This document shows positions 1 through 20,000 of a stretch of DNA of 33,965 bases, piece after piece. The stretch is from a virus (lineage: Duplodnaviria; Caudoviricetes). The stretch covers positions 1 to 33,965 of the IMG/VR virus record IMGVR_UViG_3300036987_000545, one strand, 5' to 3'. The notes beneath the pieces were generated by a model. That model did not search any database, was not told where the DNA came from, and saw nothing but the letters and a program-made list of their open reading frames with translations. Numbering within the stretch: position 1 is the first letter of the stretch; each line of letters opens with the position of its first letter. Position numbers and translations under genes: made by a program.

Positions 1-1074
1 ATGAGCAAAGACTTCTATCTGCACAAGCGGGGGAATATCTGGTACGTCCAGTTTGTCCTTCCTGATGGGCGGCGTACCACGGCAAGATCCTCGGGACAGA
101 CCAATAAAACGGCCGCAGAGAAGTGGGCAAAGGCAGAACTTCCCAAGATCGGCAGCCCGAAAATCACCCTTGGGGCCTGGGCTGGACAGTTCTTCCAGGA
201 CGATTGTCCCCACATATCCCGGCTCAAGGAAGAGAACAAGCCGTACTCCGATCCCCACAAAGCAAATCAATACTCCCTGCTTAAAAATCATATCCTGCCC
301 GATCCGGTCTGCAGCATCCTCCTTGGAGATCTGACTAAAAACGACATTCTCCTATTCAGGCAGCGCCTGGTGAAGGCTGTAGGTCAATCCTCGGTATCAC
401 AGAAGACCATGGGAGCCCTGCGGGTGATCATCAGAGAGGCATTGTTCCGGGAGTTCATCCAGCGGGACCTGTTCGCCGGCATAGGGAAGATCCAGTACGA
501 GGAGAAGAAGCGGGAGGCATTGACCCAGGATGCCCTGAAGAAAGTCCTGGATCCTGAAAGTTTTGCCAACCGTATGCACTATGAGGCCACCTTCTGCGCT
601 GCTGTCACAGGGCTCCGGGCAGGAGAGGTCCGGGGACTCCAGTGGAGTTCCCTGGTTGGCGATGTTCTTATCGTGGACCGGAAAATCTACACCCAGAGCG
701 ACAAGTCAGCGAAGCCCAAGTGGGGGAAGGTCCGGGCAGGACCATATCCACAGATCCTGCAGGACATGCTTGAGCCCCGCAGAGGCAAGCCCGATGAGTG
801 GGTTTTCTCCATATCTGGCGGCCCGATGGGGTACAGGGAGTGGAGACGGGCCATGAAAACACTGGACCTTACAGGTGTTACCCTCCATTCCTTGCGTCAT
901 ACCTTGAACACCATGCTCCGCGGTGAAGGGGTGAACGATGCAATCCTCCAGGGAGCGTTCGGCTGGTCAGGCCCTGAAATGCAGGAGAACTATACAGACA
1001 AAACCAAGTATGACTATTCCGAGATGGGAGCCGACATAGACCGGCTGATTGGAGGCATTATTGAAAGCCATTGA
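1..1074 (+). CDS. int: Tyrosine recombinase / phage integrase
   Basis: N-terminal arm-binding-like segment (FYLHKRGNIWYVQF...ARSSGQTNKTAAEKWA). Catalytic motifs TGLRAGE (R), KPKWG (K), HSLRH, FGWS (W in place of second H) and ENY (Tyr). Confidence 0.95.
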   Translation: MSKDFYLHKRGNIWYVQFVLPDGRRTTARSSGQTNKTAAEKWAKAELPKIGSPKITLGAWAGQFFQDDCPHISRLKEENKPYSDPHKANQYSLLKNHILPDPVCSILLGDLTKNDILLFRQRLVKAVGQSSVSQKTMGALRVIIREALFREFIQRDLFAGIGKIQYEEKKREALTQDALKKVLDPESFANRMHYEATFCAAVTGLRAGEVRGLQWSSLVGDVLIVDRKIYTQSDKSAKPKWGKVRAGPYPQILQDMLEPRRGKPDEWVFSISGGPMGYREWRRAMKTLDLTGVTLHSLRHTLNTMLRGEGVNDAILQGAFGWSGPEMQENYTDKTKYDYSEMGADIDRLIGGIIESH

Positions 1075-1777
1075 CGGCACGGCCGCGGTTGCACTGTACG
1101 AGATCCCGGACCTGGGGGACGATGACCTGGTAATCGACTTCATCGACTCTGCAAGCCTGGAGCAGATCGAGGATGGAATACGGAAGATCCAGGACACCAG
1201 CGACCTTCTTGCCCTGGTCCAAGGGGTAGCTATCGTCAAGATCGAACGAGAAGGACTCTGGATGCAGGCAGGATTCAACAACCTGAAGAACTACCGGATA
1301 GCCCAGAATGAACGTCTGGGGATGCCCCGCCAGACTGTATCCAGGAGAAGACAAGTCGGTGAAGGATATCTGGATAATCGCAAACTGTTGGGGAAATTCT
1401 CCCTGCATGGCCATGTGGAGAAGCTGCGCCTCCTGAATGATGCGGTCCGATTGTTCGGGAAAAAGGAAGCTGTTGCCCTGTTCAAGACTTCCACCTTGCG
1501 CGAGTTCATCGAGGCTGTGAGGCCAAGGGAGATTGAAGGTGAACTCACCGAGGTATCGTTCAAGCTGGACAAGGATGGCGTATGGATCGACGGAGAACCA
1601 ACGCTCTTGTGGCCTACAACGTACCCGGAGCCTGAGCGCAAATGGCTGGGGACCATAGTCGAAAGAGCATTCAAGGCCCGTGCCGGCGGGAACCTGGCCC
1701 ATGTTGTATCGGTCTACGACCAAGGAGAGGCGAGGGCTGTGGACCTTTTTCTCAAGCGGCACAGGGAATCGAAGTAG
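1061..1777 (+). CDS. Hypothetical DNA-binding protein, distantly PF49 partition/DUF3102-like; overlaps the integrase end
   Basis: Long ORF. GGAGG at 1051-1055 precedes TTG at 1061, preferred over TTG 1049. Motif GVAIVKIEREGLWMQAGFNNLKNY followed by HTH-like RLGMPRQTVSRRRQVG. Family call is tentative. Confidence 0.6.
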   Translation: MKAIDGTAAVALYEIPDLGDDDLVIDFIDSASLEQIEDGIRKIQDTSDLLALVQGVAIVKIEREGLWMQAGFNNLKNYRIAQNERLGMPRQTVSRRRQVGEGYLDNRKLLGKFSLHGHVEKLRLLNDAVRLFGKKEAVALFKTSTLREFIEAVRPREIEGELTEVSFKLDKDGVWIDGEPTLLWPTTYPEPERKWLGTIVERAFKARAGGNLAHVVSVYDQGEARAVDLFLKRHRESK

Positions 1778-1781
1778 CCCC

Positions 1782-1853
1782 CTGGGAGCCTTGACCTCCC
1801 GGCCTCGCCTGGAACGATTTGCTAAGTGGCATCACCAGCGGCGGGGGCGGGGG
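1782..1853. terminator. GC-rich hairpin region between convergent operons, possible terminator
   Basis: CTGGGAG-N7-CTCCCGG stem at 1782-1802 plus C-rich/G-rich complementary arms to 1853. No U-tract. Confidence 0.25.
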
Positions 1854-2204
1854 TTATCTAATGAACAAGGCCAGGGTGACTGCTCCCAGCAGCACTGCGT
1901 TCAAGATCACGGAGAGCTTCAAGAATAGCACGGATCTTTGCAATGCTAGACTTGCTTGACTCAAGCTCTGTCCTTGCTGCACTGATAAATCCTGCATTTC
2001 TATCAAGCTCCGCTCCAAGTTTGCCGACCATAACTTCTGCATCAGCAAGCTGCTCTCCAAGCTGTCTATTATTTCTGATTGCCTCATCAAGCTCGCCTCC
2101 AAGATGTCCAATTCTGATAGAGCTTGATCTATAGATGATGGCCCCGCAAACGCCGGCCCCGATGACAAGGCCAAGCACAAAGCAAAACAGATAGCCTTTC
2201 GCAT
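1854..2204 (-). CDS. Signal-peptide + coiled-coil + C-terminal TM protein overlapping the previous gene in another frame (putative spanin partner)
   Basis: MRKAICFALCLALSSGPAFA resembles an SPase I signal (A-x-A). Leu heptads follow, then C-terminal hydrophobic VLFLKLSVILNAVLLGAVTLALFIR. GGAGG lies 5 nt upstream of its ATG. Confidence 0.7.
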   Translation of the reverse strand: MRKAICFALCLALSSGPAFAGPSSIDQALSELDILEASLMRQSEIIDSLESSLLMQKLWSANLERSLIEMQDLSVQQGQSLSQASLALQRSVLFLKLSVILNAVLLGAVTLALFIR

Positions 2205-2208
2205 TCAT
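1858..2208 (-). CDS. N-terminally membrane-anchored coiled-coil protein (i-spanin/Rz-like)
   Basis: TM helix YLFCFVLGLVIGAGVCGAII then heptad repeats. ATG overlaps the holin stop (ATGA). Last position in the lysis cassette. Confidence 0.7.
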   Translation of the reverse strand: MNAKGYLFCFVLGLVIGAGVCGAIIYRSSSIRIGHLGGELDEAIRNNRQLGEQLADAEVMVGKLGAELDRNAGFISAARTELESSKSSIAKIRAILEALRDLERSAAGSSHPGLVH

Positions 2209-2399
2209 CCCTCCCCCTTCGGCTTGGTAAAACTGTCAGCGGCGATATACCCCCCGGCCACCCCGACCAGCAGGGACAAGGCAGCCCCCATGCCTCCGGG
2301 GATGTCCTCGCGCACTATCCCCGCGGTGATGATCGCTGTGGCGCAGGCCATGGACCACAGGGCCACCATCCATCGTCTACTCTGCCATTTGTTGTACAT
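2205..2399 (-). CDS. Holin (2 TM helices)
   Basis: 64 aa, basic N-terminal KWQSRRW, two hydrophobic helices, charged tail. GAGGTG RBS before ATG 2399. Adjacent to the endolysin. Confidence 0.75.
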   Translation of the reverse strand: MYNKWQSRRWMVALWSMACATAIITAGIVREDIPGGMGAALSLLVGVAGGYIAADSFTKPKGEG

Positions 2400-2401
2400 G
2401 A

Positions 2402-2866
2402 TCACACCTCGAATGCTATCTGGATATGGTATCCATACCCGTATGGATCGTTGCCGACCCGGATCACCTTGCCCTTCATGGATCTATTCCAATGGATGTC
2501 GAAGTGGTCCTTGGTGGTGCGCCTGTCTTCCGGCACCAGGTCAAAGCCGTGATGCACCTTGCGGGTCAGCTTGTAGTACTCCAGCTCTGCATAGGCAGTA
2601 GTCACCACCAGTGGAACGATGAACATATCGTCGTCCAGGAAGTACAGGTACTGTTTCATTGGAGCAGACTGCGGCTTCTCGGCCTCGATGTCGTGGAGAC
2701 TGTACAGCCCGTCATTCTCTCCCCTGGTCAGGTCGAAGTGCAGGTGGGCTGCTGTGCTTTGCCCTGAGTTGCCCATGCGGCCGACGATGAAGTTCTCCAG
2801 GATGGTGTCCCCCACCTTCCATCTCGGGAGGCTGTCCAGGTGTGCGTAACGTGCGGTGAGGGTCAT
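2402..2866 (-). CDS. Endolysin, M23-family metallopeptidase, circularly permuted
   Basis: YAHL, VGRMGNSGQSTAAHLHF (HxH), HHGFD (HxxxD) and GKVIRVG...GYGYHIQI motifs all present but in permuted order. Confidence 0.88.
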   Translation of the reverse strand: MTLTARYAHLDSLPRWKVGDTILENFIVGRMGNSGQSTAAHLHFDLTRGENDGLYSLHDIEAEKPQSAPMKQYLYFLDDDMFIVPLVVTTAYAELEYYKLTRKVHHGFDLVPEDRRTTKDHFDIHWNRSMKGKVIRVGNDPYGYGYHIQIAFEV

Positions 2867-3213
2867 TTAAGCAGGGCGATCAACGCCACAATGATGATCC
2901 CTACTATCTGTACCCACTGGGCGTGCATCAAGTGCTTGCCCTTGACCTTCTCGATCTGCAGCATGGTGATCTCCTTCTTGTTCGTCTCTATGTAGTCCTT
3001 GATCGCCTTCAGGCCCAGACACTCCTGCGCCCTTGTCTGGGTCCTGCGGTCAACATGCCCCTCCAAGGTATCCACCCTGTCACAAAGGTCAACCACAATG
3101 GATCGCTTGCCATTACTCTTGTCTGGCCCCCAGTAATCGGCAGCCAGTTCGCGGTGTTCTGTGTACAGCTTTGCGATGCGGTCACGGGCCTCGCTGTCGA
3201 TTACTTCGGCCAT
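2863..3213 (-). CDS. Small membrane protein with C-terminal TM helix (lysis-module accessory)
   Basis: Helical soluble part plus WVQIVGIIIVALIALLK. Stop overlaps the endolysin ATG. Confidence 0.65.
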   Translation of the reverse strand: MAEVIDSEARDRIAKLYTEHRELAADYWGPDKSNGKRSIVVDLCDRVDTLEGHVDRRTQTRAQECLGLKAIKDYIETNKKEITMLQIEKVKGKHLMHAQWVQIVGIIIVALIALLK

Positions 3214-5418: not shown

Positions 5419-8037
5419 TTATCCTTTTATCATCAAACGGTAATTCGCGCCGTCTGCCGCTTTGTATACTGTGCCCGCCGGGAGTAATGTATTCCAGTCC
5501 GGCAGGCCGGTGAGCTTGTAGGTAAACGACGCTGCATTGAATGCAAGGGAGAGGTTCCTGTTTGCCAAGGCTTCGGATGCAGACAGGAGGACCTGCGGGT
5601 TATTGCCGTCAGGTGGGTTTTCCCCAGAAACCATCCCGTCACCATATGGGTAACCATACGATCCTGACCATGGTGCATGCCATAATTTTGTCCATGTGCT
5701 GCCTGGGCGATGGAATACGCCGGTCCAGTCAGTCACCACTGATCCATTCAGATAGCCTTTAAGTGTCGCATCTATGCGAGTGACACTCCCACCTTCCCAC
5801 CAGTCTGCCATAGCCTTGCCACTGTGATAATTTCTGAAATCCTTGTATGCTGCCTTGAACTGTGTTGCGCTGTACGATATCTCGATTTCATCTACTGATT
5901 GTCCATCTATGGTCCCAGTGCAGACAAACTTGCCGGAATGGACCCCGAGGTGGGCTGCTATCTTGCTGACTACAAGCGCCCGATAGTCGTTGGCATTCTG
6001 CGAATAAGTACTTGAGCCTGGCGGTGAAATGGATAATGTGAGAGGCCCGGCCTCTATGCTTCCTCGGAACACTCCGCTATGAGCGTTGATCTCTCCTTCA
6101 AAATATCCAACCTTAGCTATTACCGCCTCTGCATTGATGATATCTGTGTTGATAAGGCCACCAGATATGATAGTCCCGCCTGCCCGTGCCGACAGCTCCA
6201 TCTCGCCCCAACCATCAAACCCCAGTTTGTCTGCCATTGCGTCTTTGGCTGCCAGCTCTGCATCAGACACCTGTGTCGTGGTCGCTGCACCAAGGACATT
6301 CCCGACCAGCAGCTTCCCGTCCGGGAACATGACATCTCCGCCTGCGAAGACCAGCTCGTCCGCCTCGACCGTGAACCGGGAGCCGAGCAAGTCCGCTGCC
6401 CTGAGTACCGTCCGCAGTGCATCGAAATCCTGTATGCTCGCTCCCGGTTTGAGCCGGTAGATACCATCAGTCCCCGGAGCATATACAGCCAGCACCATCG
6501 CAGAGCTTGATCCGGCAGCGTTGGACATGGCGGTCATTGTATCGGCGGTTATTTCCAGAGGTAAAGTAATCTGTAGGCCGAGAAAGGCAGAGCTGCCCCC
6601 GCCCTGGACCCGGGCGGCTACGCTATCCTTGAGAATGGCGATCTCGCCGCTGGCCACCGGAAGTGGGCCAGGTACTGCTTCGGTTCCCCACACTGACAGG
6701 TTGATGCTGTCTGCTGTACTGATGATCTGGCTGGCAAGGACTCCTTCTGCAGCGCTGGCCCGGCTTACCTCGCTGGTGATCCGGTCGGCCTCGATGACGA
6801 TCAGGCTGGCAAGGACTCCTTCTGCAGCGCTGGCCCGGCTTACCTCGCTGGTGATCCGGTCGGCCTCGATGACGATCAGGCTCCGGGTGATGGTGTCGGT
6901 TTCTGCCTGGGCCTGTACTGCCAGCTCGATACGCCTGGTGGATACATAGATCCCGGCCTCTGCCTTGGCCAGGGCCTGGTCTATCATCTCGGTTGCAAGG
7001 GATTCTGCCTCGCGGACCCGGAGCATGATAGCGTCGCTGGTCTGCACGATGTCTGAGACAGCTGCAATGACTCCGGCGTCGGTCTCGATCACCTCGGCCA
7101 CCTTGGAGCTGATATTGTCGTCGGTGATGATGACGCTGGCTACGTTCCAGCCGGTCCCGCCATCTGACTCTACGACCAGGGAGATCTGGTCGTTCAGGAT
7201 GTTGATCTTGGCCATGCTCCAGGTTTCAAGTTCCCCCGGGCCTGTGTCGTAATTCACCCACTTGCCAGATAGTGCCGACAGTGCAATATTCGCCTTGTTC
7301 TGGGTGATCATGGTCAGGTTTACTTCCTGCCCTCCGCCCCCGTCTATCAGCTCTCCTACTAAGGAGGTCAGGCCATCTACCGTGCTTTGTAAGGTGGATA
7401 CAGCCGTAATGTTGCCATCCAGCACGATATTGTTGGCAAGCAAGCCTTCCTCGGTGTCGGAGACAGCCTCCATCAATCCGGTTGCCAGTGTGGATGCCTC
7501 ACCTGACAGGGTGTCAATACGTGCAATGTCTGACATTTCTGAAAGGCCGTATGGGAATACCTCGCTGGATATAGTCTCATGTTCCAGCAGGAAGCCTGAA
7601 GAGAGCTTGGCCTTCTCTATGGCTCCATCCAGGATTGCACTACCGTCGATAATATCATCCAGGTCGTCGGTGGTAGGGACCCGGATCGCTTCTTCCCAGG
7701 TACTGACCAGGGTGCCGTCGGCATACTTGAGGGCTCTGGTCTGCCAGCCGTACCCCTCGCCAGCGGGGATGTACAGGAACCAGTCGGAGGGGTCTTCAAC
7801 AACTGGTGGTTCTGGTTGGAGCAGGGATTTCTTGTAGCGGATCTCCAGGAACCATTTTACAGCAGAGAGGTCAAAGTCTCCCATGACCCCGTTGATACGG
7901 TGAATCTCGGATTCAGCCTGGAGGATGCGGGTCTTGACCCCAAGGTATTCCCGGGAATCAAGCCCTCCGTCAAGAGTTCTGATGGAACGTACAACGAGGT
8001 CTTTATATCCCAGATCCTCTTTCTGTGACGCCATCAT
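5419..8037 (-). CDS. Long tail fibre / host-specificity protein
   Basis: Acidic coiled-coil and I-x-Q-T-x-D-x-I type repeats, GEINAHSGVFRGSIEA motif seen in tail-tip proteins, and a distinct C-terminal domain. Follows the internal virion proteins. Confidence 0.7.
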   Translation of the reverse strand: MMASQKEDLGYKDLVVRSIRTLDGGLDSREYLGVKTRILQAESEIHRINGVMGDFDLSAVKWFLEIRYKKSLLQPEPPVVEDPSDWFLYIPAGEGYGWQTRALKYADGTLVSTWEEAIRVPTTDDLDDIIDGSAILDGAIEKAKLSSGFLLEHETISSEVFPYGLSEMSDIARIDTLSGEASTLATGLMEAVSDTEEGLLANNIVLDGNITAVSTLQSTVDGLTSLVGELIDGGGGQEVNLTMITQNKANIALSALSGKWVNYDTGPGELETWSMAKINILNDQISLVVESDGGTGWNVASVIITDDNISSKVAEVIETDAGVIAAVSDIVQTSDAIMLRVREAESLATEMIDQALAKAEAGIYVSTRRIELAVQAQAETDTITRSLIVIEADRITSEVSRASAAEGVLASLIVIEADRITSEVSRASAAEGVLASQIISTADSINLSVWGTEAVPGPLPVASGEIAILKDSVAARVQGGGSSAFLGLQITLPLEITADTMTAMSNAAGSSSAMVLAVYAPGTDGIYRLKPGASIQDFDALRTVLRAADLLGSRFTVEADELVFAGGDVMFPDGKLLVGNVLGAATTTQVSDAELAAKDAMADKLGFDGWGEMELSARAGGTIISGGLINTDIINAEAVIAKVGYFEGEINAHSGVFRGSIEAGPLTLSISPPGSSTYSQNANDYRALVVSKIAAHLGVHSGKFVCTGTIDGQSVDEIEISYSATQFKAAYKDFRNYHSGKAMADWWEGGSVTRIDATLKGYLNGSVVTDWTGVFHRPGSTWTKLWHAPWSGSYGYPYGDGMVSGENPPDGNNPQVLLSASEALANRNLSLAFNAASFTYKLTGLPDWNTLLPAGTVYKAADGANYRLMIKG
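6729..6882. repeat. Perfect 75-bp tandem duplication (25 aa: SLIVIEADRITSEVSRASAAEGVLA x2)
   Basis: Copies start at 6729 and 6804 and are identical at nucleotide level. Confidence 0.95.
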
Positions 8038-11000
8038 TCCTCCCCGAGGGCATCCTGCAAGTATTGCAGGTATTCCTGAACCGCTAGGATTGGGAGCCCG
8101 GAAATACGTGCAAGGGTAACTGCTGCTTCGGTCATCCCTTTACCTGTATTTCCGCTCACCAAATTGTATCCTGAACTGATCATTGATTCAATAACTGGGT
8201 ACATGCCTGAGCCCGATTTGTAGTACGGTCTCTTGGTGACCAGGCTCTTTACAGCCTGTGATACAGGCCCGGATACGAGGGGGAGGGAAGCGAACGGCTG
8301 GCTTATCGCGTAGAACATCCAGTCCTGCCACCACTGGTCGTCATCTTCCTTCCGCTTGTCCCGTCCGAATCCCTTTCTGATCACTCCCAGGGCCATGCCA
8401 CTGACGACCATGCCGGCAGCGATACCGAAGAACTCGCTGTAGTTCTTCTCGCTCAGGGCATGGGGCATGTCGAATGCCATCTGCTGGAATACAACATTAA
8501 GCTGTGATCCGAACTGGGTGAAGGCCCGTTTCCATTCATGGGTATCCTGGAACAGGGGAGCCATGTCTATCGCCCTGGCAGAGGGTTGGCAATGCCTGGT
8601 TACATAGTCAGCTCTCTCGATTGCCTGCTCCTGGTTGCCGTGCTTTGCCATCTCCTTGTTGTACACTGCTCTCCATCCGAGAGCCACCATCCATGTCTGG
8701 GAGAACTCCAGGCCCTTCATGCCTACTTCGCCTATCTTCTTGACAACCTTCTCGTATCCTTCCGGGTCCATCCGCTTGATCTGCTGCCAGAGGGGGTCAG
8801 GGTTGTAGTTGCGGAGGGTGATCGAGAGAGCCTTGGTCTCCTCCATCCAGACCGTTGGATTCCTCATCATGTCCGCTGCGGTTCCGAAGAGCTGCCCAGG
8901 GGCATAGGCCAGGTATGGCCAAGGGGTGGTCATAAGGTTGTTCAAGGCAGAAGCAAGCCTCCAGGAAAGAGCAGAGACTGCCACGAACCCCCTGGCCCTC
9001 CTGAGAAGCTGGTCGGATACGTCCGCTCCCTGGCGTCCGAACATCTCCACGGCACGGGTGTGAGCTATGTTGTGGATATGGTTGTCCACCACCTTGAGCC
9101 CTGAGTCCCCAGCCATGTTCTTGATCATGGTCCTGATCTTCTCTGCTCCATGTCCCTTGTATACACGGTTCAGCCTGTCCACGTACTCGCCCATGGCTAT
9201 GAGCTGTTCCTGGGCGTGAGTCGCTTCCATCCAGGTCTTGAACAGTCCCAGTCGTATCGGAGCCTGGTTGGTCAGACCGATGTTTATGCGCTCCTTGGCC
9301 CATCCATTCTCGGGGGAGGCCTTCATGTATGATGTAGACCCATCGGCACTGGCGTTCCTGGTGAGGATGTCGTTCACAACCGATTCAGTGACATTCTGGG
9401 TCAGCCCCATCCTGAGCATCGGAATATAGTTCTCCTCCTGCCTGAGTTCCTCGTTGGTGAGCCTGATGATCTCCTTGTTGAGCCGTGGGAACTCTGTCGC
9501 GTAATCCTTGGCAATGAGTTCCATGAGACCTTTTTCATCCGCAGTAAGCTCGGTCTCCGCAGCCTTGAGAACGGCATGGAGCCGTGGTTCTGCTATCGCC
9601 CGGAGGGTCTTGGAGTCATACAGGAACTTCTTCTCGTTCACCTCGTCCAGCAGCATGCCAAGGAGTGCATCCCTGGACTTCTCGTTCCTTGCGCCGGCAA
9701 CGAACATCATTATATCATCTGCGGTATAATGGACATCCTTCCCATTGAAGAAAGCACCTTCGACCTTGATCTTCCTGGTCAGCTTGTCAGCAGTGATGTT
9801 GTGAGCCTTCATGTATGCCAGAACAGGATTGGCCCTGCGCTCAGTCTGCCGCAGCCGTTCCTTGTAATGCTTCTCATGCTCATCCACCAGCAGGGTCCAG
9901 TTGGGTTTATCCGGATTCTTCTTATCCAGGACATACTCGATGAACCGCTCGGAATTCATGGTTCCCAGGATCAATCCATACTTGGAATTCAATCCTTTGA
10001 GGATCTTGCGCTCCTCTGCCGATCCAGGAGCATTCTGGTCCTTGTACTTGGGATTTGCCTTGAGCCCTCTTTCCACCTCGTCCCGATGGTTGTAGATTGC
10101 CATGTTCCGGACGTTCTCCTTGACCTGCCAGCTCGTCCTGCCGGCGGCGTAGATCGCTTCCATTGCCTTGTTGAGCCTGAGTAGTTCTGAGTAGGTCCAA
10201 TCCTTTAAGGGTTTGTCGTTGATCTTGTTCACCAGGTTCTGGGTCAGAATGTTTTCAAGGCCCGGGTGTTCCCGGAAAAGCTGGGATATCTTGGACCAGT
10301 TTAGCGGAGGTTCGACGATGCGGCCGGTCTTCCGGTATCCACCTGCTTCCGTCCGTTCTGTCTCCCACTTCTTGTTCCGCAGATAGTCCTTGATCGCCCT
10401 GAGCTGGGTCTTCTGCTCGTAGTCGATCTTCGCGCCCTTGCGGATAGGCTCAAGGATGTTCGCCACCAGTTTAGCCCGGACTTCCTTGAGCTTGTACATG
10501 GCCCGGATCTCTTTGGCTGCCAGCTTCGATTCTTCCCTGGCGCTCTTGAGGGCTTCGGCAAGTGCCTGGCCTTTGAGCTTCGAGGTATCCAGGGACTTCT
10601 CCCGGTCTGCCAGCTTCTTTCTATCAGACTCCAGGCGCTCGATGTATTCCTTTATCTCAGGTTCAGTGATGGTGTCGTTCTCGATCTTCTCCTTGAGGTT
10701 CTTGTCCCTAATGTTGTCCAGGACCGCCTGCCTCTGGGCCACGGTCATGCCCTTGTACGCTCTGGGGAGTTTTATATCCCTGGGTCCGGTGACTGCTTCC
10801 TTCTCCACCCTTACTTCCTGGGCAAGGTCCAGATCTCCGGTCAGCTCCGAGGACATCTCCTTGAAGGCCAGTTCGCTCTTGCGTATGGATGAAAGCACAG
10901 CCCTGCGGACCGTTGAATTCAAGGGCTGACCCTTCTTGCCGTGGGATATCACAGCTCCCAGTACAAAGGGGTGATTGGCAAGCATCTTCTCGATGCTGGT

Positions 11001-14000
11001 CTTTCCCTTCGTCTCAGGGTCGTTCTCTGCCTTGATGCGTTCCCAGAGGTCAGACAGGAAGGCTTCCAGGTTCTTGCCCTCGGATAGTTGGCTTGCGAAC
11101 TTGCCCCGGTTCTGGGTGTATGCGTCGGGTTCGGAGTCTTCCGGTTCGAATAGGGTCTTGGGTGTTGCTTCCGTCATCCCCTCCGGAGCGAACCACTGCT
11201 CCCCGGAGAACCTTGGCTTGCCTCCGATAGTGTCAGCCCACTCAGTGAAAACCCTTGCTGATTCCGGGTCTTTCACATCGTAGTTGATGTCAGCCTTGCC
11301 GTAGTATCCACCCGCAGGAGGGGAGGGATGATCAGATACCCGGACCAGGTATTCTCCGTTGACCTTGTAGTACCTGGAGAGTGAGGAGCGGGAATACTGG
11401 ACTGAATACTCCAAGCCCCTGGAATACAGCTCGTCCTGCACAGTAAGGGAAGCTTGCTCTACAGCTTCGAACAGGTAGGTTCCCTTCTCTGCTATCATGG
11501 TCATCGCAGGGGTGATGGGCATGGAGTGGACAGTCTGGGATTCAACAGGTTCAGCAGAGTAATAGGTCATCCTGCTGTTCTCTGCGAACCGTTCCGCTTC
11601 CGCTTCCGAATCGAATACATCAGATCCTATCCGTCTGCCTTCGTCGGGGGTTCCAGTCTCGACAAGCATCCAGCCTTGCATGGGAAGCTCTGAGTCTGCC
11701 ACCTGGGCTCCGTACTTCTTCCCGAAAGAGTTGGCATAGTCAACAAGCATCTTGTCATAGAAGCCTTCCATGCCTTCCTTGCGTGGCATGGACGAGCCTT
11801 CATCCTCGGTCTGCATCCTGGTCCACGTGCGGTCTACGATCTTGCTGATCTGCTCATCGGAGTGTTCTCGGCTCAGAATATTACGGACGATACCTTGCAA
11901 TGCTTCTTTGCTGTTGACCGACTTTCCACTAACCTCCAGGAGTTCACCTCGCCTACGAGCGTCGGCTTCGATGTCAACACCACCAGCTACGCCACCCCTT
12001 TGCTCGGTGACAGCAACCTTCCATCCTTCTCCTTCGCGCTTCCAGGCAATCTCCTCTGAACCCCAACGATCAAACTGTACCGCTCCAGGTGTCCAGGACA
12101 CCGTGTCATACCCCTTCTCGACAGCCTCGCGTAGGATTCGCTTGAATACGAACTCGTGCCAGGTCTTCTTGAAGGGAGAATCAGGAACGCCAGGAGTCAT
12201 CAAGCCATTTATACGCTTCTCAACGCTTTTCTCGGCAACCTCTTTGCTGGTGAATAATTTCCCAGGGTCATCTTCTGCAAACCAATAGCCAGGATCATCC
12301 TGTGATTCAACGATCTTGATATTTACTTCTGTCGAATACCCCTTCTTCTTCCCTTCCTGATGCAAGTCAGACTGGATCTCCTCGATGAACAAGGCTTTCT
12401 TGCCGTCTGATGTTACTCGGTCATTCAGGCGGGTGTGGGCGAGGACGTTGCGCTCGTCCCAGTGGCCGGATTGGTACTGTCTGTTGTACGCATCGCTATA
12501 CGCATCGTTGTATTGTTCTTTTTTAGCTATCTCATATCCCTCTCGTGCAAACTTTTCATCAGCCAATCCAATTTCATTCAAGTTTTCTTTAGCCCATACA
12601 TCGAATTCCGGAAATGGTTTAAGTTCGCCTACTTTCACTGGTAACTTAAACAACACCTCCCGGTAGTTCTCGCCGCCAGGGAGGGTGTACTGGGAGAACT
12701 TGGGAGGGTTGGGGAGGGGCATTGCAAGTGCCTGCTTGTTTAGATGATCCAGCTCACCGCGCAAGCGTTCCATTTCTACCGGGTCAGTGGTCTGCCCAAT
12801 TTCCCACTTCTTGTCTAGTATATCCTTTGTAAGTTTACGCCTGGCCCGTTCGCTATTCCAGCCTTTTTCCACTTCCTCGATCTGCAACCGGTTCCCCTGG
12901 ATATGCTCCATCACCTGTGCAGGGGTCAGCTTCTCGTCGGTGTCCAGGAACTTGTCCAGCCCGGTCCACTTCAGTTCCTCAGCCTTGACCCCGGCGTTCT
13001 GGAGCATCTTGAGTATGCTGTTTCCAGGCATTGGGCCTTTGAGCTTCTGGGAGATTGTTTCTTCGGCTTTGTAGATCCAGCCATCGTCGGCCTCAAAGTA
13101 GATCCTGTTGGTCTCGTCGAAGGTGACATTCCTTCCGGAAGCATCCTTGATCCCGTAGCTGGAGAACTTGGCAAAGATGTTGTCGGTCGGCCCACCGTCC
13201 CTGGCGTTCATCAGGATGATGCCGTCATGGCCTTCGTCCCGCGCTGCCTTGACTGCCTCAAACCACCGTCCGGTCACGCCATCGGCAGCCTGATGCCATG
13301 CACCACCACCCCAGTCGATGACCTTGGGGTTGTCCAGCTTGAGCCATAACTCAAGGACTCCTCCAGCAGGAGGGGCTGGGTCGAAATCATCAAGCCCTGC
13401 GTACTCGGCTATCCTTTTGGTTGTCTCAATGCTAGGGAACTCTGTGTAGTGATCCTGAATTTCACCTACCAGCTTCCGCCTCTTGTCATCCAACCTGTCG
13501 AGGAATTTGGTATCAGGGTGGGTTGGTCCCAAAGCATCAATCTCTGCCTGGATCTGTGTCAATGCGTCATTCAGGACAGTTCCCATCTCCAGGTAAGCAT
13601 CAACGTACCTTTGCAGACGATCAACTGCTTCGTCTGATGCCCCTTTGGCATTTCCGTCAGCCACCAGCCTGTTGTACCATTCGGTGTTCTGCCCAGTGTC
13701 TGGCACATACGCATGAGCTGTATTGATGTTTCCACCAAAGAAGAATGCTATCTTTGCAGATCTTGCTCCGGTAAAGGACCCCCTCAGATCCTCCCTGAAA
13801 CTATCGAACTGATCTACGTTCCTGCCGGTTCCGTGGAACACCTTGGCAACCACCGGCTCCCCGGTCTGGAATGTATTGGAGGCTTTCTCTATGAGCTGGT
13901 CGATCCCGCTGATCTTCTGGACAAGATCACTGGCTTCCTTCGCTTCGTAGACAGCCTCGGTCTTGTGGTACTCGATCTGCTCGGAAACCGTCCTGTCGCT

Positions 14001-17000
14001 AGGTATCCAGTATCCCAGATCCATAGCCAGTTCACGGTCTTGCTCTGTCGCGCTTTGTTCGGAAATACCCTTGGTCTTCATCCACTGAAGGGTGCGCTCC
14101 AAGGTATCATCGGTCTTATAGGCAACTGCGTTCTGCTGGTGTTTCTCCAGTGACCGATTGTACCACCCCTTCAAATGGTTCAGCGCACCGAGTACGGATA
14201 TCTCAGAGTTGGTCGTCTCCCGGTAGTACCCCGAGGCATTGAGGTCAGACTCCTGCGCGATGGACAGGATGGACTGGAGGTTCTTGTACGATGAGTCATC
14301 GACAACCTTGTGGCCTTCGGACCATCGGTCGAACTCCGGGTCGCCGGCCTCGAACATGATCGTGCTATCAAAGTCCTGCCCGTCGTAGAAGCGCCGGATA
14401 TATCCCAGTGCCTTTGCTGGATTCCCGTCAGCCTCTATTGTCGCAGTCCTTTTACCGTCCCGCATCTCAACCCATGATGTCCCGCTGCCCTGGATTATTG
14501 TCTTGATCACGCTCCACTGTTTCGTGGTAGGCATCCTGGACATATCGGCAAGACCTGAGTTGGCATCCATACGGATTGCACCCATATCAATGAACGCTTC
14601 CATTGAATCGTTTCTGCCTTCTGGAGCGCCAGGCCAGTCTATTTCTCGATGATCGGTTGCTCTCTCATGCTTCAGGTAATCACGGCCTTTATCAACAACA
14701 AACATGCCATTCTTTTTCTGGTATCCTGTTGCTTCATGCCTGCCCGAGAAGTCCAGCATGGTCCCATCAGGCAGGACATATCCTGCTTCGTAGACATCCC
14801 TGGTAGTTCCAAAGGTCTCTATGGCTGCATTGAAGGCTTCCTGTGCTTCAGGGGTTATGTCTTCGGGCTCGAACAGGATAATCGCTTCGTCAGCAGCAAT
14901 ATCCTCTGATGAATACGGACGGATTGACTTCCGCTGGTCCCTGGAAAACCCCATGCGGCTTGCAGCGTCCCTGGCTTCTATCTCCCCTGCGGTTTTAGTG
15001 TATGCCTGGAAGGGATCTTGCGGGGCTGGAACCTTTGCTCTTAATTCGTAGAGCTTCCTATACAGTTCCTTGTCTCCATCCTTCTTGGCCTTTGACATTT
15101 GATCTGAGTAAAACCTGTATGATGCTGCGTTTTCATCCTGCATCTTTCGCTGCATCTCAGGGGTCGATCCCCGTGCAAAACCTTGGACTTTCTGTATGGC
15201 ATGCTGGAGTTCATGCACAAGAGTGTTTTTGTTTATTTCGCCAGTCTTTCTTGAGTAGCCAACTCCGATAGACGGCATGCCATAGGGATTATCCTGGAGC
15301 CATCCATTTTCCGTGTCAGGAAGTAGCGTTAGACCGATACGGTCAATGCCAGGGTATGCCTTGAACAACTCCGGGTTGCGGTAAACACCGCCCACAGTAT
15401 CAAAGGTTTTATTCCCTTGTTTCATGTCCTCCCTGGTTCCCCAGGATTCTATCTCGTCTCGGGGGATTATTTCCCCTGATGGTACTTCCGTCCTCCACAC
15501 GCCGTCATACTTGCCCTGGAACCAGCCGGTCTTCTGCCGTATTTCTTCTCCATCCACACCGGAGGCCAACATCTGCTTGGCCTGAGCAAGGGCTGATCTT
15601 TCTTCATCGGTCAGTACAGCGTTCTCTCCGGCGTACTCGAAAAGAATGCGCGGGTCGCTGGTGTCCCAAGTGCCGTAATTGTTTACGCTTTTGATCTGTG
15701 TGGGGTAGAAGGCTGCTATCTGCCCGAACGATCCGTCAGGATGGATTTCTATTATCCCGTCCACCCCTTCTGATTTCAACTGCTTGTCCAGCTTGTCTAT
15801 GAATGAATCCCTGGTCTTCATTTCCACCGAGCTGTCAAACAAGTCTTTACCGGACAGCTCCTTGAACCTGGAATAGTAGTCTTTCTCCATGATCGGATTC
15901 TTGATCGAAGCATACAGAGGCATGACATTCGGTGTTTTGCCAAGATTCCTTTCAGTGGCTGCCATTGCGAATGCCGATGCAACAGCCTTCTCGCCAGTCA
16001 GGTAAATTTTGCCTTTGCCCATTCCAAGGTTGCGCTTGCGGCCTTCCTTGTCTTGCGCTATTCCAAGGCTGAATTCTTCGATGACACTGCCTGTACCGTG
16101 GTAAACCTCTACAGGGTTGCCATTGCCGTCAATAATTTTCGAGCCATCATAAAATGCTTTGAATTTGTCGCTTCCAATATCACCAGCAGGCTCGAACAAC
16201 AGGAACTGATCCTTCTGCTTCCTTGGGGGAAGATCAGCCTCGTCAAACAAACTCGCAGTCTCGGGCTTGGTAGGGTTGTCGTAGAACTTCGCAACGTCAT
16301 ACGGAGTGGCCGAATTCAGGGTCTTTCTTCCCACAAGCTGCCCATCCGGTCCGTCTATGTGCAGGGTGAACGATCCCTTGGCATTGGCTGCAATGATCGC
16401 TGCTGCATCGAAGGAAGGAACCCCAAGCGAATAGGCCACGCCGGCATTGAAGTCCACCCGGACCGCTCCGGTTTTCTTCATGAAATCCTGGGACGGGTCT
16501 TTCTTCGAGATTCCTTCGATGGAGGCAACGGCTCCATGCTGGAGCATCCTGATCCCGCCCTGGTAATCACTAGTCGTCCCCATGCCGATATCTTTGCCTG
16601 AGAAGTTGAGCATCCGTCCGTCAGACAGGATGTATCCCGCTTCCTTCGGGTTCGTGGTGGTTCCGAACTTCTTTACGGCAACATCGGACAGGGTGCGTTC
16701 GTCGAACAGGTCATCGGCCTCGAACATCACTCGTGCAACAGGACGGTACATTGATTCGCTGACACGGAAATCCTTGTGCTTGCCCTTGTTCTCTACGAAC
16801 CCGAACCGCTTGTAAAACTCGACAAGCCTTGCTTTCGACGATCCCCATTCGCTTGTCGGAGTCAGTTCAAGCTGGATTCCATGCTTGTCAGCCAGGGCTC
16901 CAGCTTCCATCATTGCGGCGGTGGCGAGCCCTTTTCCTCTTAGTTCCTTGTTGACCTTAATGGTGACACTTGCACTGTTTTTCCCAGGATAAATGTCTAG

Positions 17001-20000
17001 AGTGACTCCTTCGCTTGCCCATTTCTGCCTGAGCTGCCTGAAATCATCTTCTGTTTCCGGCTCGAACATCATCGGGGTATCGGTGTCCTGTGATGCCGTT
17101 TCTTCCTCGACCACAATGTCGGATACAGGAAGGCCTGCTTCGACCCTGAGCTGCCGGATGATTTCAGGATCCGTGGCCCATCCCTTGAGCCGTTCAATCT
17201 CGGATAGGATCTCGTCTATCTTCCCCTGGACATCGCCGACATTCTCGGCATCAACCGGGATATTGAGCCCGTATTCCTTGGCTATCTTTGCCCTGTCTGC
17301 TTTTGACAGGGTTAAAGCCCCGGTCAGGGTGGTCTTCATCCTGGTGAGGTCGTACAGCTTGTCTGCCAGGAGTTCTGACAGGATCTCGTTCTGCCTGATC
17401 ATCTCCTGGTATGATTCATCGGAGGCGAATCCGTCCAGGTCGGTCTGTGCGCTATCGTCGCGCTGCTGCTGGGACCTCTGGACCATGGAGGCGCGAACCA
17501 TGTCGATGAATACCAGGAGCTTGTCCGCGGTCATCTCGCGGTGTTTCCTGATCCCTACTGCCTGCAGGGCTTCGTCTCCCCTGGATGCTTCGGCAATCGC
17601 TGCAGCCTTGTCTGCCCGGATCTCCCCCATCATGAACAGTCCGTACAGGGAATCCCCTGCGTACCGTGCAATCACCCATCCGGCCCGGCCTTTGTCGTTC
17701 CGCAGAAGGCCGTTCTCCTGGGCTGCCTCCTCTGTGTAGCTGGTGTGCCGGAAGAAGTGGGCAAAGTCCTGTTCTGTTCCTTGGTTATCAAGGATGTTCT
17801 GCTCTGCATCGAGTATCAGCATTTGATCAACAGTGTACCCGTCTGACTCCTTGAACACCTGGACAGGAACCTGGGGGGCTCCGACACGCTGTGCAAGGTC
17901 TGCCCGGTGTCTTCCTGTTGCTATGATCCGCTTTCCATCGGATGCACGTTCCCATACAAGGATCGGGTTTGCCGGTTCAGTCCGGTACGACTTTCCCGGA
18001 AGCTGCTTGACGACACCACGCTTGTTGGCGTTTTTCTTGAACTGTGGAATTACTTCGTTGTCCACGAAGATTGAATCAGGCGACACCCATTCAACAGGGA
18101 GGGCCGTCCCCTTCATTGATGGAGGGACAGGCTGCTGTGTAACCGTCTCATCGGTGGGACTTTCCTGGATGGTCTGTTCTGCCTGCTTCGCTTCCTGCTG
18201 CATCTCCTGGTTGATCGCTGAAAGGGGAGAGGACTGGCTTCCCAACCATTCGTCGAATATCGCTGCAAGCTCAGGGCTTACCTTGTTCTCGGAGGACAAG
18301 GCCTTCCACATGCGGACGATGTATTTGCCGATCTGCTCGAAGATACCCCTGAGCCCCTCGTGCTGGACCGTACCGTAGGCTTCCCAGGTCATCACATCAT
18401 TGACAAGTTGTTCCTCTTGAGCCCTGGTCCAGACCCCTCCGGAGACGCCGTATGCCTGGTCCAGTTTCTTGCCTGCCTCGGTCCCGATGGTAGTTCTACG
18501 GTACATGTGCAGCATCTCATGGTGCAGCGAGAGGCTATTGGAACTCTTGGACAGGAGGATCAAGCCCCTCCCGCTGTCCGGATCCACATAGAATCCGGCC
18601 CTCGCGCTGGTTCCTTCGACTTCCCCGGTGGCCTGTGCCTTGGTCCATGCGTCCTGCAGCTTTGCATCATCCCGGACGAACAGCTCTGATTCCATGTACT
18701 TGTCCAGGAACTGCTGCACGGTGAGCCCTTCGGCGGCCGCCCTGGTTTCCAGCCTGGCTGTTTCAAGTTCTATCTGCAGCCTGGAAGCATCCGGGAACAT
18801 GTCTATCGCCCTGGCCCGGAACCTCTGGGTTCCTTCGTCCCCGGACTGGTTGAACCACTGCGCTCCATGCTCTATCCCGCGGGGGTTCATCTTCGTGGCC
18901 TTCTCCACGAGAGCCCGGGCCATCGCACTGGATGCTTCGTTGGCAATGATGGGGATCCCCGCATGGCTTGCTGCCAGCTCCATCAGGGCCTCGCTCGAAA
19001 CTCCTGCGTAGGCATCGGAGAAGTTTGCGTCCTTGAGCAGGAGCTGCCTGTTCCCTTTTGAATCCACCTGGATCTCGTACCCCAGTTTCCCCGTAGGCCT
19101 TCCGGTCTCAGGGTCTCCAATGAGGAACTGTGCCTCCACCGATCCATCGTCGGATTCATTTATCCGTACATCCCTGGTGTGAAGGTGTCCGGAGACGTAC
19201 TTGGCATCCAGGGGCTTGTTCTGCTCTGCTTCCAGGCTGGTCTTCTTCTGCTCCCGCTCCCACAGGTCGTTCAGGGCTTTCTCCTGCTCCTGCGGATCCA
19301 GCTGCCCCAGGACTTCCTTGACGACTTCCGTCTCCTTGGCGTTCTTGATGAAGGTCTGCCTGTCGGAGGCTTTCGCGTACTGCTGGAGCCCGCTGAGGGC
19401 CTTGTAGTCCGATGCGACACCCATAGGGCCGGATACGACGCTGAACCAGGGAGTGGCCAGGAAAGCGCCCTTGCTGGCTTCCAGCATGTCCCGGACGATC
19501 CTTTCGGTTCCCGGTCGGTCGATCTCCTTGCCCCTGAAATGCTCCATGTACTCTGCGGCGATGATATCCGTCAGGCTGGAGGCCAGGGCATCCAGGGGCT
19601 CCACGATCAGACCTTCTTCCAGAGTGGACACAGCTGTCCTGGTGAAGTGCCGGAGTATTATTGTCGGAACCACACCTTTGGCGAATACCTTCTGCGATAT
19701 CGCGTTCGCAAGGCCCCCGGATACACCAGTGGCAAGCCCCCGGACCATGGCATCGGCACCCAGGGCGGTGTTGATGATACCAGTAAGGGCTCCGGATATT
19801 GCAGCCCCTATGGTAGCCACATCATTGTCGGCTCCGTTCTCGATGAGCCGGAGGTATTCATGCCCCACTGATCCCAGTCCCATATCCACGGCGGAATAGA
19901 GCTTGGATGCGGCCGCAACACCCTTCATGAGGGCAGGAGTGACAGCCAGACCCATGGCTCCTGCGACGGGAGCCACTGCAGCTCCTGCGATACTTAGACC

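Follow-up and report, generated by a model that had tools for sequence, protein, structure and literature searches.

The window, namely the whole stretch of 33,965 nucleotides analyzed here, is a provirus record that is 62% complete. An integrase occupies positions 1-1074; genes for terminase, portal, capsid and tail proteins lie on the minus strand, the capsid protein having ~26-27% identity to the capsids of BPP-1 and phiV10-like podophages. The 3' end of the late operon contains, in this order, an M23 peptidase, a two-TM holin-like gene and a pair of overlapping genes, hereafter called B and A. The M23-family peptidase (2402..2866, minus strand; PF01551, E 8.6e-9, above the cut-off) is the likely endolysin, and the holin-like gene (2205..2399, minus strand, with its ATG at 2399) encodes a two-TM protein of 64 aa that belongs to the MYNKW family and matches the PHROG holin family phrog_9284 (E 0.0037). 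The pair B/A therefore shares a lysis cassette with holin and endolysin, the location that characterizes two-component spanins. Upstream of the endolysin, a gene for a 116-aa protein with a C-terminal hydrophobic segment (2863..3213, minus strand) gives a weak match to PHROG holins (E 0.12) and is possibly a second holin or an antiholin. In every cassette read, the endolysin is preceded by a small gene whose product has a single hydrophobic segment (window 2863-3213, minus strand; L002 2090-2413; L004 2663-3001; L007 2267-2578); neither the sequence of this gene nor the position of the segment is constant. Elsewhere in the window, an ORF of 4,170 aa (8034-20546, minus strand) in the internal-virion-protein region is apparently a long mosaic of domains, and one of 242 aa (1049-1777, plus strand), with no significant match in Pfam, PHROG, NCBIfam or plasmids, overlaps the end of the integrase.

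Gene B (2208..1858) and gene A (2204..1854) are open frames of 351 nt on the minus strand, each coding for 116 aa, with A in the +1 frame of B. A previous sequence-only reading of this DNA, which was silent on the strand, had described two same-strand ORFs of 351 nt offset by 4 nt at both ends; the ORF coordinates agree with this description and give an overlap of 347 nt. The start junction, GAAGGGGGAGGG-ATGA-ATG, and the end, TAG-A-TAA, also read in the sequence as had been reported, and the TGA of the start junction (2207-2205) does end the upstream holin-like ORF, overlapping the ATG of B and abutting that of A. Common to both starts is a purine-rich ribosome-binding region, AAGGGGGAGGG (2209..2219, minus strand), which lies inside the 3' end of the holin gene, the Shine-Dalgarno-like elements being GGAGG 5 nt before the ATG of A and AAGG 7 nt before that of B; judging from this spacing, a single purine tract could serve both starts. 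The ATG of A follows the holin TGA directly and in the same frame (2204-2207, minus strand), so that read-through would fuse holin and A; this in-frame junction is not conserved, the two frames differing in one of the divergent records described below (L004).

Selection on the two overlapping frames

When the B protein was held fixed and its codons were resampled synonymously, the A frame was open in 1.4% of 20,000 trials; in the converse resampling, with the A protein fixed, the B frame was open in 4.7%. An open +1 frame was found in none of the 77 non-overlapping segments of 116 codons taken from ordinary genes of the window. Contigs of eight DNA runs aligned to positions 1700-2500 carry related sequence across the pair, and the indels inside the pair, among those listed for these runs, are net-zero pairs; no RNA data set with the stretch was listed.

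The test for selection was made with one DNA pair, the window and L002, the latter being the only close relative with DNA that was found. L002 keeps both frames with no indel and differs from the window at 74 of 355 nt, the proteins being 72% (A) and 68% (B) identical. At positions 1, 2 and 3 of the B codons there are 32, 15 and 27 differences, to be compared with 20, 12 and 39 in the adjacent holin gene. In the holin pS is 0.81, as compared with 0.34 in B and 0.37 in A, and pN, at 0.17 and 0.16, lies below pS in both frames. The holin has 13 changes at its 20 four-fold sites and B has 6 at 41 (Fisher p 2e-4); A has 10 at 28, and its difference from the holin is not significant (p 0.08). With simulated selection on B alone, A was stop-free in 3.4% of 10,000 runs, and the observed identity of A was reached in none of them.

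Two separately called database proteins, P0012 of B type and P0016 of A type, each on a contig of 8,413 bases, fit one DNA with 0 mismatches at an offset of -5, as compared with 77-89 mismatches at five other offsets; different gene callers each chose one frame. The sequence-only reading had looked to homologous loci for both frames kept open, with suppressed synonymous variation, and had taken stops in one frame as evidence against a functional pair. Both frames are open at six loci, with no stop in either, and pS is under half that of the holin in the comparison with L002. Given the synonymous suppression, the values of pN below pS in both frames and the divergent pairs occupying the same slot (see below), we conclude from these sequence comparisons that the stretch holds two genes, both under selection. 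The pair is a clear-cut natural example of overprinting, in which two full-length membrane proteins share 98% of their length.

Occurrence of the pair in divergent phage records

Searches starting from the endolysin, the holin and DUF261, an alternative enzyme, led to four further phage records that contain the pair (L004, L007, L017 and L019, the last being BK063670 or vir526). In all six loci with the pair A lies in the +1 frame, the starts are 2-5 nt apart and the overlap is near-total; the four divergent loci mostly begin with a twin start of the form ATGTG or GTGTG. By chance, the second frame would be open with a probability of 0.002-0.028 per locus in these four records and of 0.002-0.047 over the six loci. 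Pairwise identities outside the comparison of the window with L002 are 19-34%, and the two-frame architecture is older than the sequences themselves. The pair is present in 5/5 loci with a MYNKW-type holin. Three records (G001-G003) gave no match to the capsid protein of the window, which indicates that the module travels across phage backbones.

A blind scan of eight records for co-started overlapping ORFs with the topologies of B and A retrieved this architecture exactly once in six of them, each time directly behind a holin-like gene, and found no such pair in G005 and vir555. The lysis region of vir555 is of another kind. In G005 there are a distant DUF261, a different holin and, in the slot of the pair, a classical-looking overlapped i-spanin/o-spanin pair (L025 597-1092) whose second member carries an LMGC lipobox, so the slot is consistent with a spanin slot. 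(A metallophosphoesterase-like gene lies between DUF261 and the holin in G005). Scans of genome collections with alignments of B and of the holin returned no locus, and a DNA scan with the holin motif returned three known loci together with two chance matches in polymerase genes, which were dropped. Since gene callers report one of the two frames, the module is systematically under-annotated. In BK063670, the B frame alone is annotated and the A frame (L019 3586-3987) was missed.

Predicted topology of proteins A and B

Topology, signal and lipobox calls were derived from hydropathy, heptad and pattern scans. The product of the first frame, B (1858..2208, minus strand), had been described as an N-terminal TM followed by a coiled coil, and this holds: its 116 residues contain one hydrophobic segment, an N-terminal anchor at about residues 7-25, followed by a long helix predicted to lie in the periplasm and by a short tail rich in Gly and Ser, the structural model being one helix over residues 3-107. 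Sequence searches found 14 homologues of B. The window protein matches the Rz-like family phrog_89 of PHROG (E 0.0065) and weak Rz-like matches are given by the B types of L004 (0.00034), L007 (0.033) and L019 (0.018), with none for that of L017; overall, B gives such matches in 4/5 divergent loci, and they may reflect only the combination of a TM and a coiled coil. Among look-alikes in the ESM Atlas, one from the Rz family scored 0.83, under the mark of 0.9. B looks like an i-spanin in its predicted features, an N-terminal TMD and a periplasmic helical or coiled-coil domain.

The strict lipobox pattern [LVI][ASTVI][GAS]C occurs in 0/19 B proteins and a relaxed pattern in 1/19. The only cysteines of the window protein, Cys9 and Cys21, both lie in the anchor. 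Cys21 is present in 12/15 close homologues (P0013-P0015 lack it), and the B proteins of L007, L017 and L019 have no cysteine at all. Its conservation follows from the fact that its TGC codon shares bases with the GCG codon of Ala20 in A, the predicted -1 residue of the cleavage site of that protein. Because of these shared bases, and its absence from divergent B types, Cys21 would by this evidence not be a lipidation site.

For protein A (1854..2204, minus strand), the sequence-only reading had proposed a cleavable-type signal peptide, a coiled coil and a C-terminal TM, and the three elements are recognizable: a leader of signal-peptidase-I type with an h-region, predicted to be cut after Ala20, a single helix over residues 24-115 in the model (mean pLDDT 88), and, after basic residues, an uncharged hydrophobic tail of 19 residues (97-115). 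As a single-sequence query A found 0/70 candidates and a two-sequence profile found one; at E<=0.001 the profile search of the A family retrieved 17 rows, of which 16 have the size of A and together with the six loci make 22 A proteins. (P0031, of 833 aa with nine short matching stretches, was excluded from the family before this count). The A of the window is itself absent from the protein collection. As many as 19/22 A proteins begin with MC, MW, MTC or MMC, as the ATGTG twin start predicts. No match to any spanin family was obtained for A in scans of Pfam, PHROG and NCBIfam.

The claim that A has no clear lipobox was borne out: 0/22 A-family proteins match either the strict or the relaxed pattern. 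With the strict count of zero in both families, neither frame appears to encode a standard lipoprotein o-spanin; a lipoprotein of this kind would have spoken against the original proposal. Behind the h-region, 22/22 A proteins have a signal-peptidase-I-like site, of the form small-X-small and then E, D, Q or GP, by a permissive pattern used without a null control; in the window, alignment with L002 places this site at AFA-GP after residue 20. The cysteines of the window protein, Cys6 and Cys10, both lie in the leader; cysteine is absent in 2/22 A proteins and in the others mostly lies inside the n- or h-region. All 22 proteins have a hydrophobic C-terminal tail of 18-25 residues ending no more than six residues from the C-terminus, with a hydropathy (best 17-mer, Kyte-Doolittle) of 2.6 in the window and 1.8-2.8 in the family; the tails of L007 and P0024 are Ala-rich and only moderately hydrophobic. 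There are 2-5 Lys/Arg in the ten residues before the tail in 21/22 proteins, and none has more than one after it. This charge pattern is the reverse of that which the positive-inside rule prescribes for an inner-membrane N-out anchor. At each of the six loci, the soluble parts of both A and B carry a net negative charge. The partner of B is thus full length (116 aa) and predicted to be anchored at the opposite end, by a C-terminal tail versus the N-terminal anchor of B, as had been claimed.

Proposed mode of action, rival explanations and probable host

A model of the complex between A 21-96 and B 27-104 scored 0.54, versus 0.22 for the best of three controls, with at least 97% of contacts agreeing among runs and a partner pLDDT of at least 88. 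The mark of the method is reached by 116/157 solved pairs and 2/215 mismatched pairs, and scores of 0.60 or less at the mark comprise only 18/157 solved pairs as well as both mismatches; the tool rates the result as weak support, and the model thus speaks weakly for A binding B. Co-translation from one ribosome-binding region would yield both proteins, B entering the inner membrane by its N-terminus and A, once exported, being held by its hydrophobic tail at the C-terminus, for which the outer membrane is the most likely place. Their rods, of about 110 and 120 Å, would meet across the periplasm and, after holin and endolysin have acted and the wall is cut, the helices may zip antiparallel and draw the two membranes together to fuse. 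With B anchored N-terminally and A C-terminally, only antiparallel zippering would bring the anchors together. In SNAREs the helices form a parallel bundle and every anchor is C-terminal, whereas the class I viral fusion hairpin is antiparallel. The 'SNARE-like' module of the sequence-only reading consequently needs amending, since anchors at opposite ends need antiparallel pairing, and the arrangement is closer to a split class I hairpin. The likeness to these systems, helical rods in two membranes that zip together, is an analogy only, also where the basic residues next to the tail of A recall SNARE linkers; a profile search of the PDB gave one generic heptad match (E 0.0012) and no homology to fusion hairpins or SNAREs.

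We estimate at about 50% the probability that the pair is a lipoprotein-free two-component spanin with the tail of A in the outer membrane. The weak step of this mechanism is the escape of the hydrophobic tail from the inner membrane: by the Sec rules of E. coli, a hydrophobic tail of 19 residues would stop there, like the C-terminal TMD of u-spanins, and we know of no route into the outer membrane for such a helix. More tentatively, the pair could be a third spanin class, a split antiparallel fusion hairpin with both halves on the same DNA and an alpha-helical tail in place of the lipid. If true, this class would reveal a route by which single hydrophobic helices pass through the inner into the outer membrane in spirochaete-type envelopes. 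A two-gene, lipid-free module would also offer a direct test of how phages outside Proteobacteria cross the outer membrane and of whether coiled-coil zippering alone can fuse two membranes.

In the portions of the spanin survey available to us (PMC6139136), a lipoprotein o-spanin belongs to the definition of two-component spanins, and a lipobox together with a C-terminal TMD to that of u-spanins, all characterized spanins need an outer-membrane lipoprotein, and two-component spanins have periplasmic cysteines for intermolecular disulfides. The same portions report no identifiable spanin in 91/677 phages of Gram-negative hosts, place the start of embedded o-spanins at ~0.4-0.5 L in ~70% of cases, and state that other topologies were left unsurveyed. 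Since A and B fail the lipobox tests of both classes, the pair would be spanin-like in its working and a member of neither class as defined. It has in common with lambda Rz/Rz1, T7 18.5/18.7 and P2 LysB/LysC the last position in the cassette, a type II inner-membrane coiled-coil subunit and +1 overprinting, but its A gene covers the whole B gene, starting within 2-5 nt, and encodes a full-length helix with a C-terminal anchor and no lipobox; moreover, the window pair has no periplasmic cysteines. The u-spanins (T1 gp11, PB1 type) share with A a C-terminal TMD, but carry an N-terminal lipobox, are beta-rich in their largest family and act alone, whereas A is all-helical and always accompanied by B in the six loci read as DNA. 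The cationic outer-membrane peptide of the phiKT gp28 type, as characterized in the text available (10.1101/515445), is unlike the net negative soluble parts of A and B. The accessible text on Leptospira prophages predicts spanins by lipobox search and does not describe a lipid-free two-frame design (PMC8705779). No description of such a pair was found in the literature searched, which did not extend to subscription papers; the supplementary spanin tables of PMC6139136 could bear on its novelty.

Both proteins might instead stay in the inner membrane, B as a type II and A as a type I protein, and build a rod which, when the wall has been cut, would attack the outer membrane from its inner side or lever it off; the outcome would be spanin-like, with nothing pre-anchored in the outer membrane. 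The tail of A is hydrophobic enough for a stop-transfer anchor and the evidence from the slot serves this arrangement equally; yet the basic residues lie on the periplasmic side of the tail in all but one of the A proteins, some tails (L007, P0024) are Ala-rich and of moderate hydrophobicity, and neither the N-terminus of mature A nor the C-terminus of B has a second hydrophobic segment to enter another membrane. We consider it unlikely, if a serious alternative. The pair might also assist lysis without acting on the outer membrane, either as a factor of LysZ type directed at glycolipids anchored in the membrane or by regulating when the holin acts; this appears distinctly unlikely. LysZ of corynephages and mycobacteriophages, according to the part of the report at hand, is likewise a membrane protein of the lysis cassette, predicted to form a long helix and needed beyond holin and endolysin, and proved not to target the outer (myco)membrane (PMC13123898). 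The direct coupling of the pair to the holin stop and the archaeal host label of one carrier (see below) would also suit an accessory role. LysZ is, however, a single gene with no two-frame pair, found in Mycobacteriales hosts and acting against lipomannan/lipoarabinomannan (PMC13123898, same part), and the pair has no match to it in scans of Pfam, PHROG and NCBIfam; further arguments against such a role are the weak Rz-likeness of B and the classical-looking lipoprotein spanin pair that fills the slot in G005.

It is very improbable that one partner is a lipoprotein with an unusual lipobox, at Cys21 of B or Cys10 of A, in which case the pair would be a conventional two-component spanin whose signals are swapped or relaxed. 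Unusual spanin lipoboxes do exist, such as AWAC in the available survey text (PMC6139136), and Cys21 is frequent among close homologues, P0006 having AGAC there; the B proteins without Cys21 or any cysteine, the shared bases that explain its conservation, and the absence or leader position of cysteines in A count against this reading. That one frame is a gene and the other open by accident is hardly credible. Databases contain mostly B for the close family and the window A is missing from the protein collection, but the synonymous suppression, the pN values, the fit of P0012 with P0016, the low chance of an open frame at each of six loci, the 16 proteins of A length called elsewhere and the twin-start N-termini all argue for two genes. 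We retain a lipoprotein-free two-component spanin as the best reading.

The host is likely to be a spirochaete, on indirect grounds. DUF261 (PF03196) occupies the endolysin slot in 4/6 loci (L002 2410-2817; L007 2550-3008; L017 2019-2498; L019 2986-3405), where the window has its M23 enzyme; with an invariant Cys, His and Asp it is a candidate cysteine-peptidase endolysin. All 334 plasmid matches of DUF261 are from Borrelia or Borreliella, which points the cassette family to spirochaetes, and a role as endolysin could be relevant to Borrelia cp32 prophages, where DUF261 adjoins an integrase, outside any annotated lysis cassette. The third look-alike cluster of A in the ESM Atlas is commonest in Spirochaetota, a lead only, since its recognition value is under the threshold of the tool. 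Searches of phage and plasmid collections with the integrase, the capsid, ORF 1049-1777 and an SSB gave no host signal. BK063670 is labelled with an archaeal host, Methanomicrobiales, which has no outer membrane; its lysis cassette looks bacterial, and its GroES and DnaB-like genes suggest that the label may be wrong, no explanation of the vir526 label having been found in the literature. Spirochaetes, as far as the accessible text of two sources goes (PMC11326224, PMC11784454), possess LolA, lack LolB and, in the genera named, have an LPS-free outer membrane; outer-membrane lipoproteins are present, and a missing sorting route hence does not force a lipid-free design.

A G+C-rich non-coding element of 73 bases lies right behind the pair (window 1776-1852; L002 3353-3440). 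It matches no Rfam family, shows neither a significant fold nor a terminator, and is absent from the other six records searched. The two copies are 93% identical, the element being conserved in L002 though the downstream genes differ, and contig depth spikes there in lake metagenomes.
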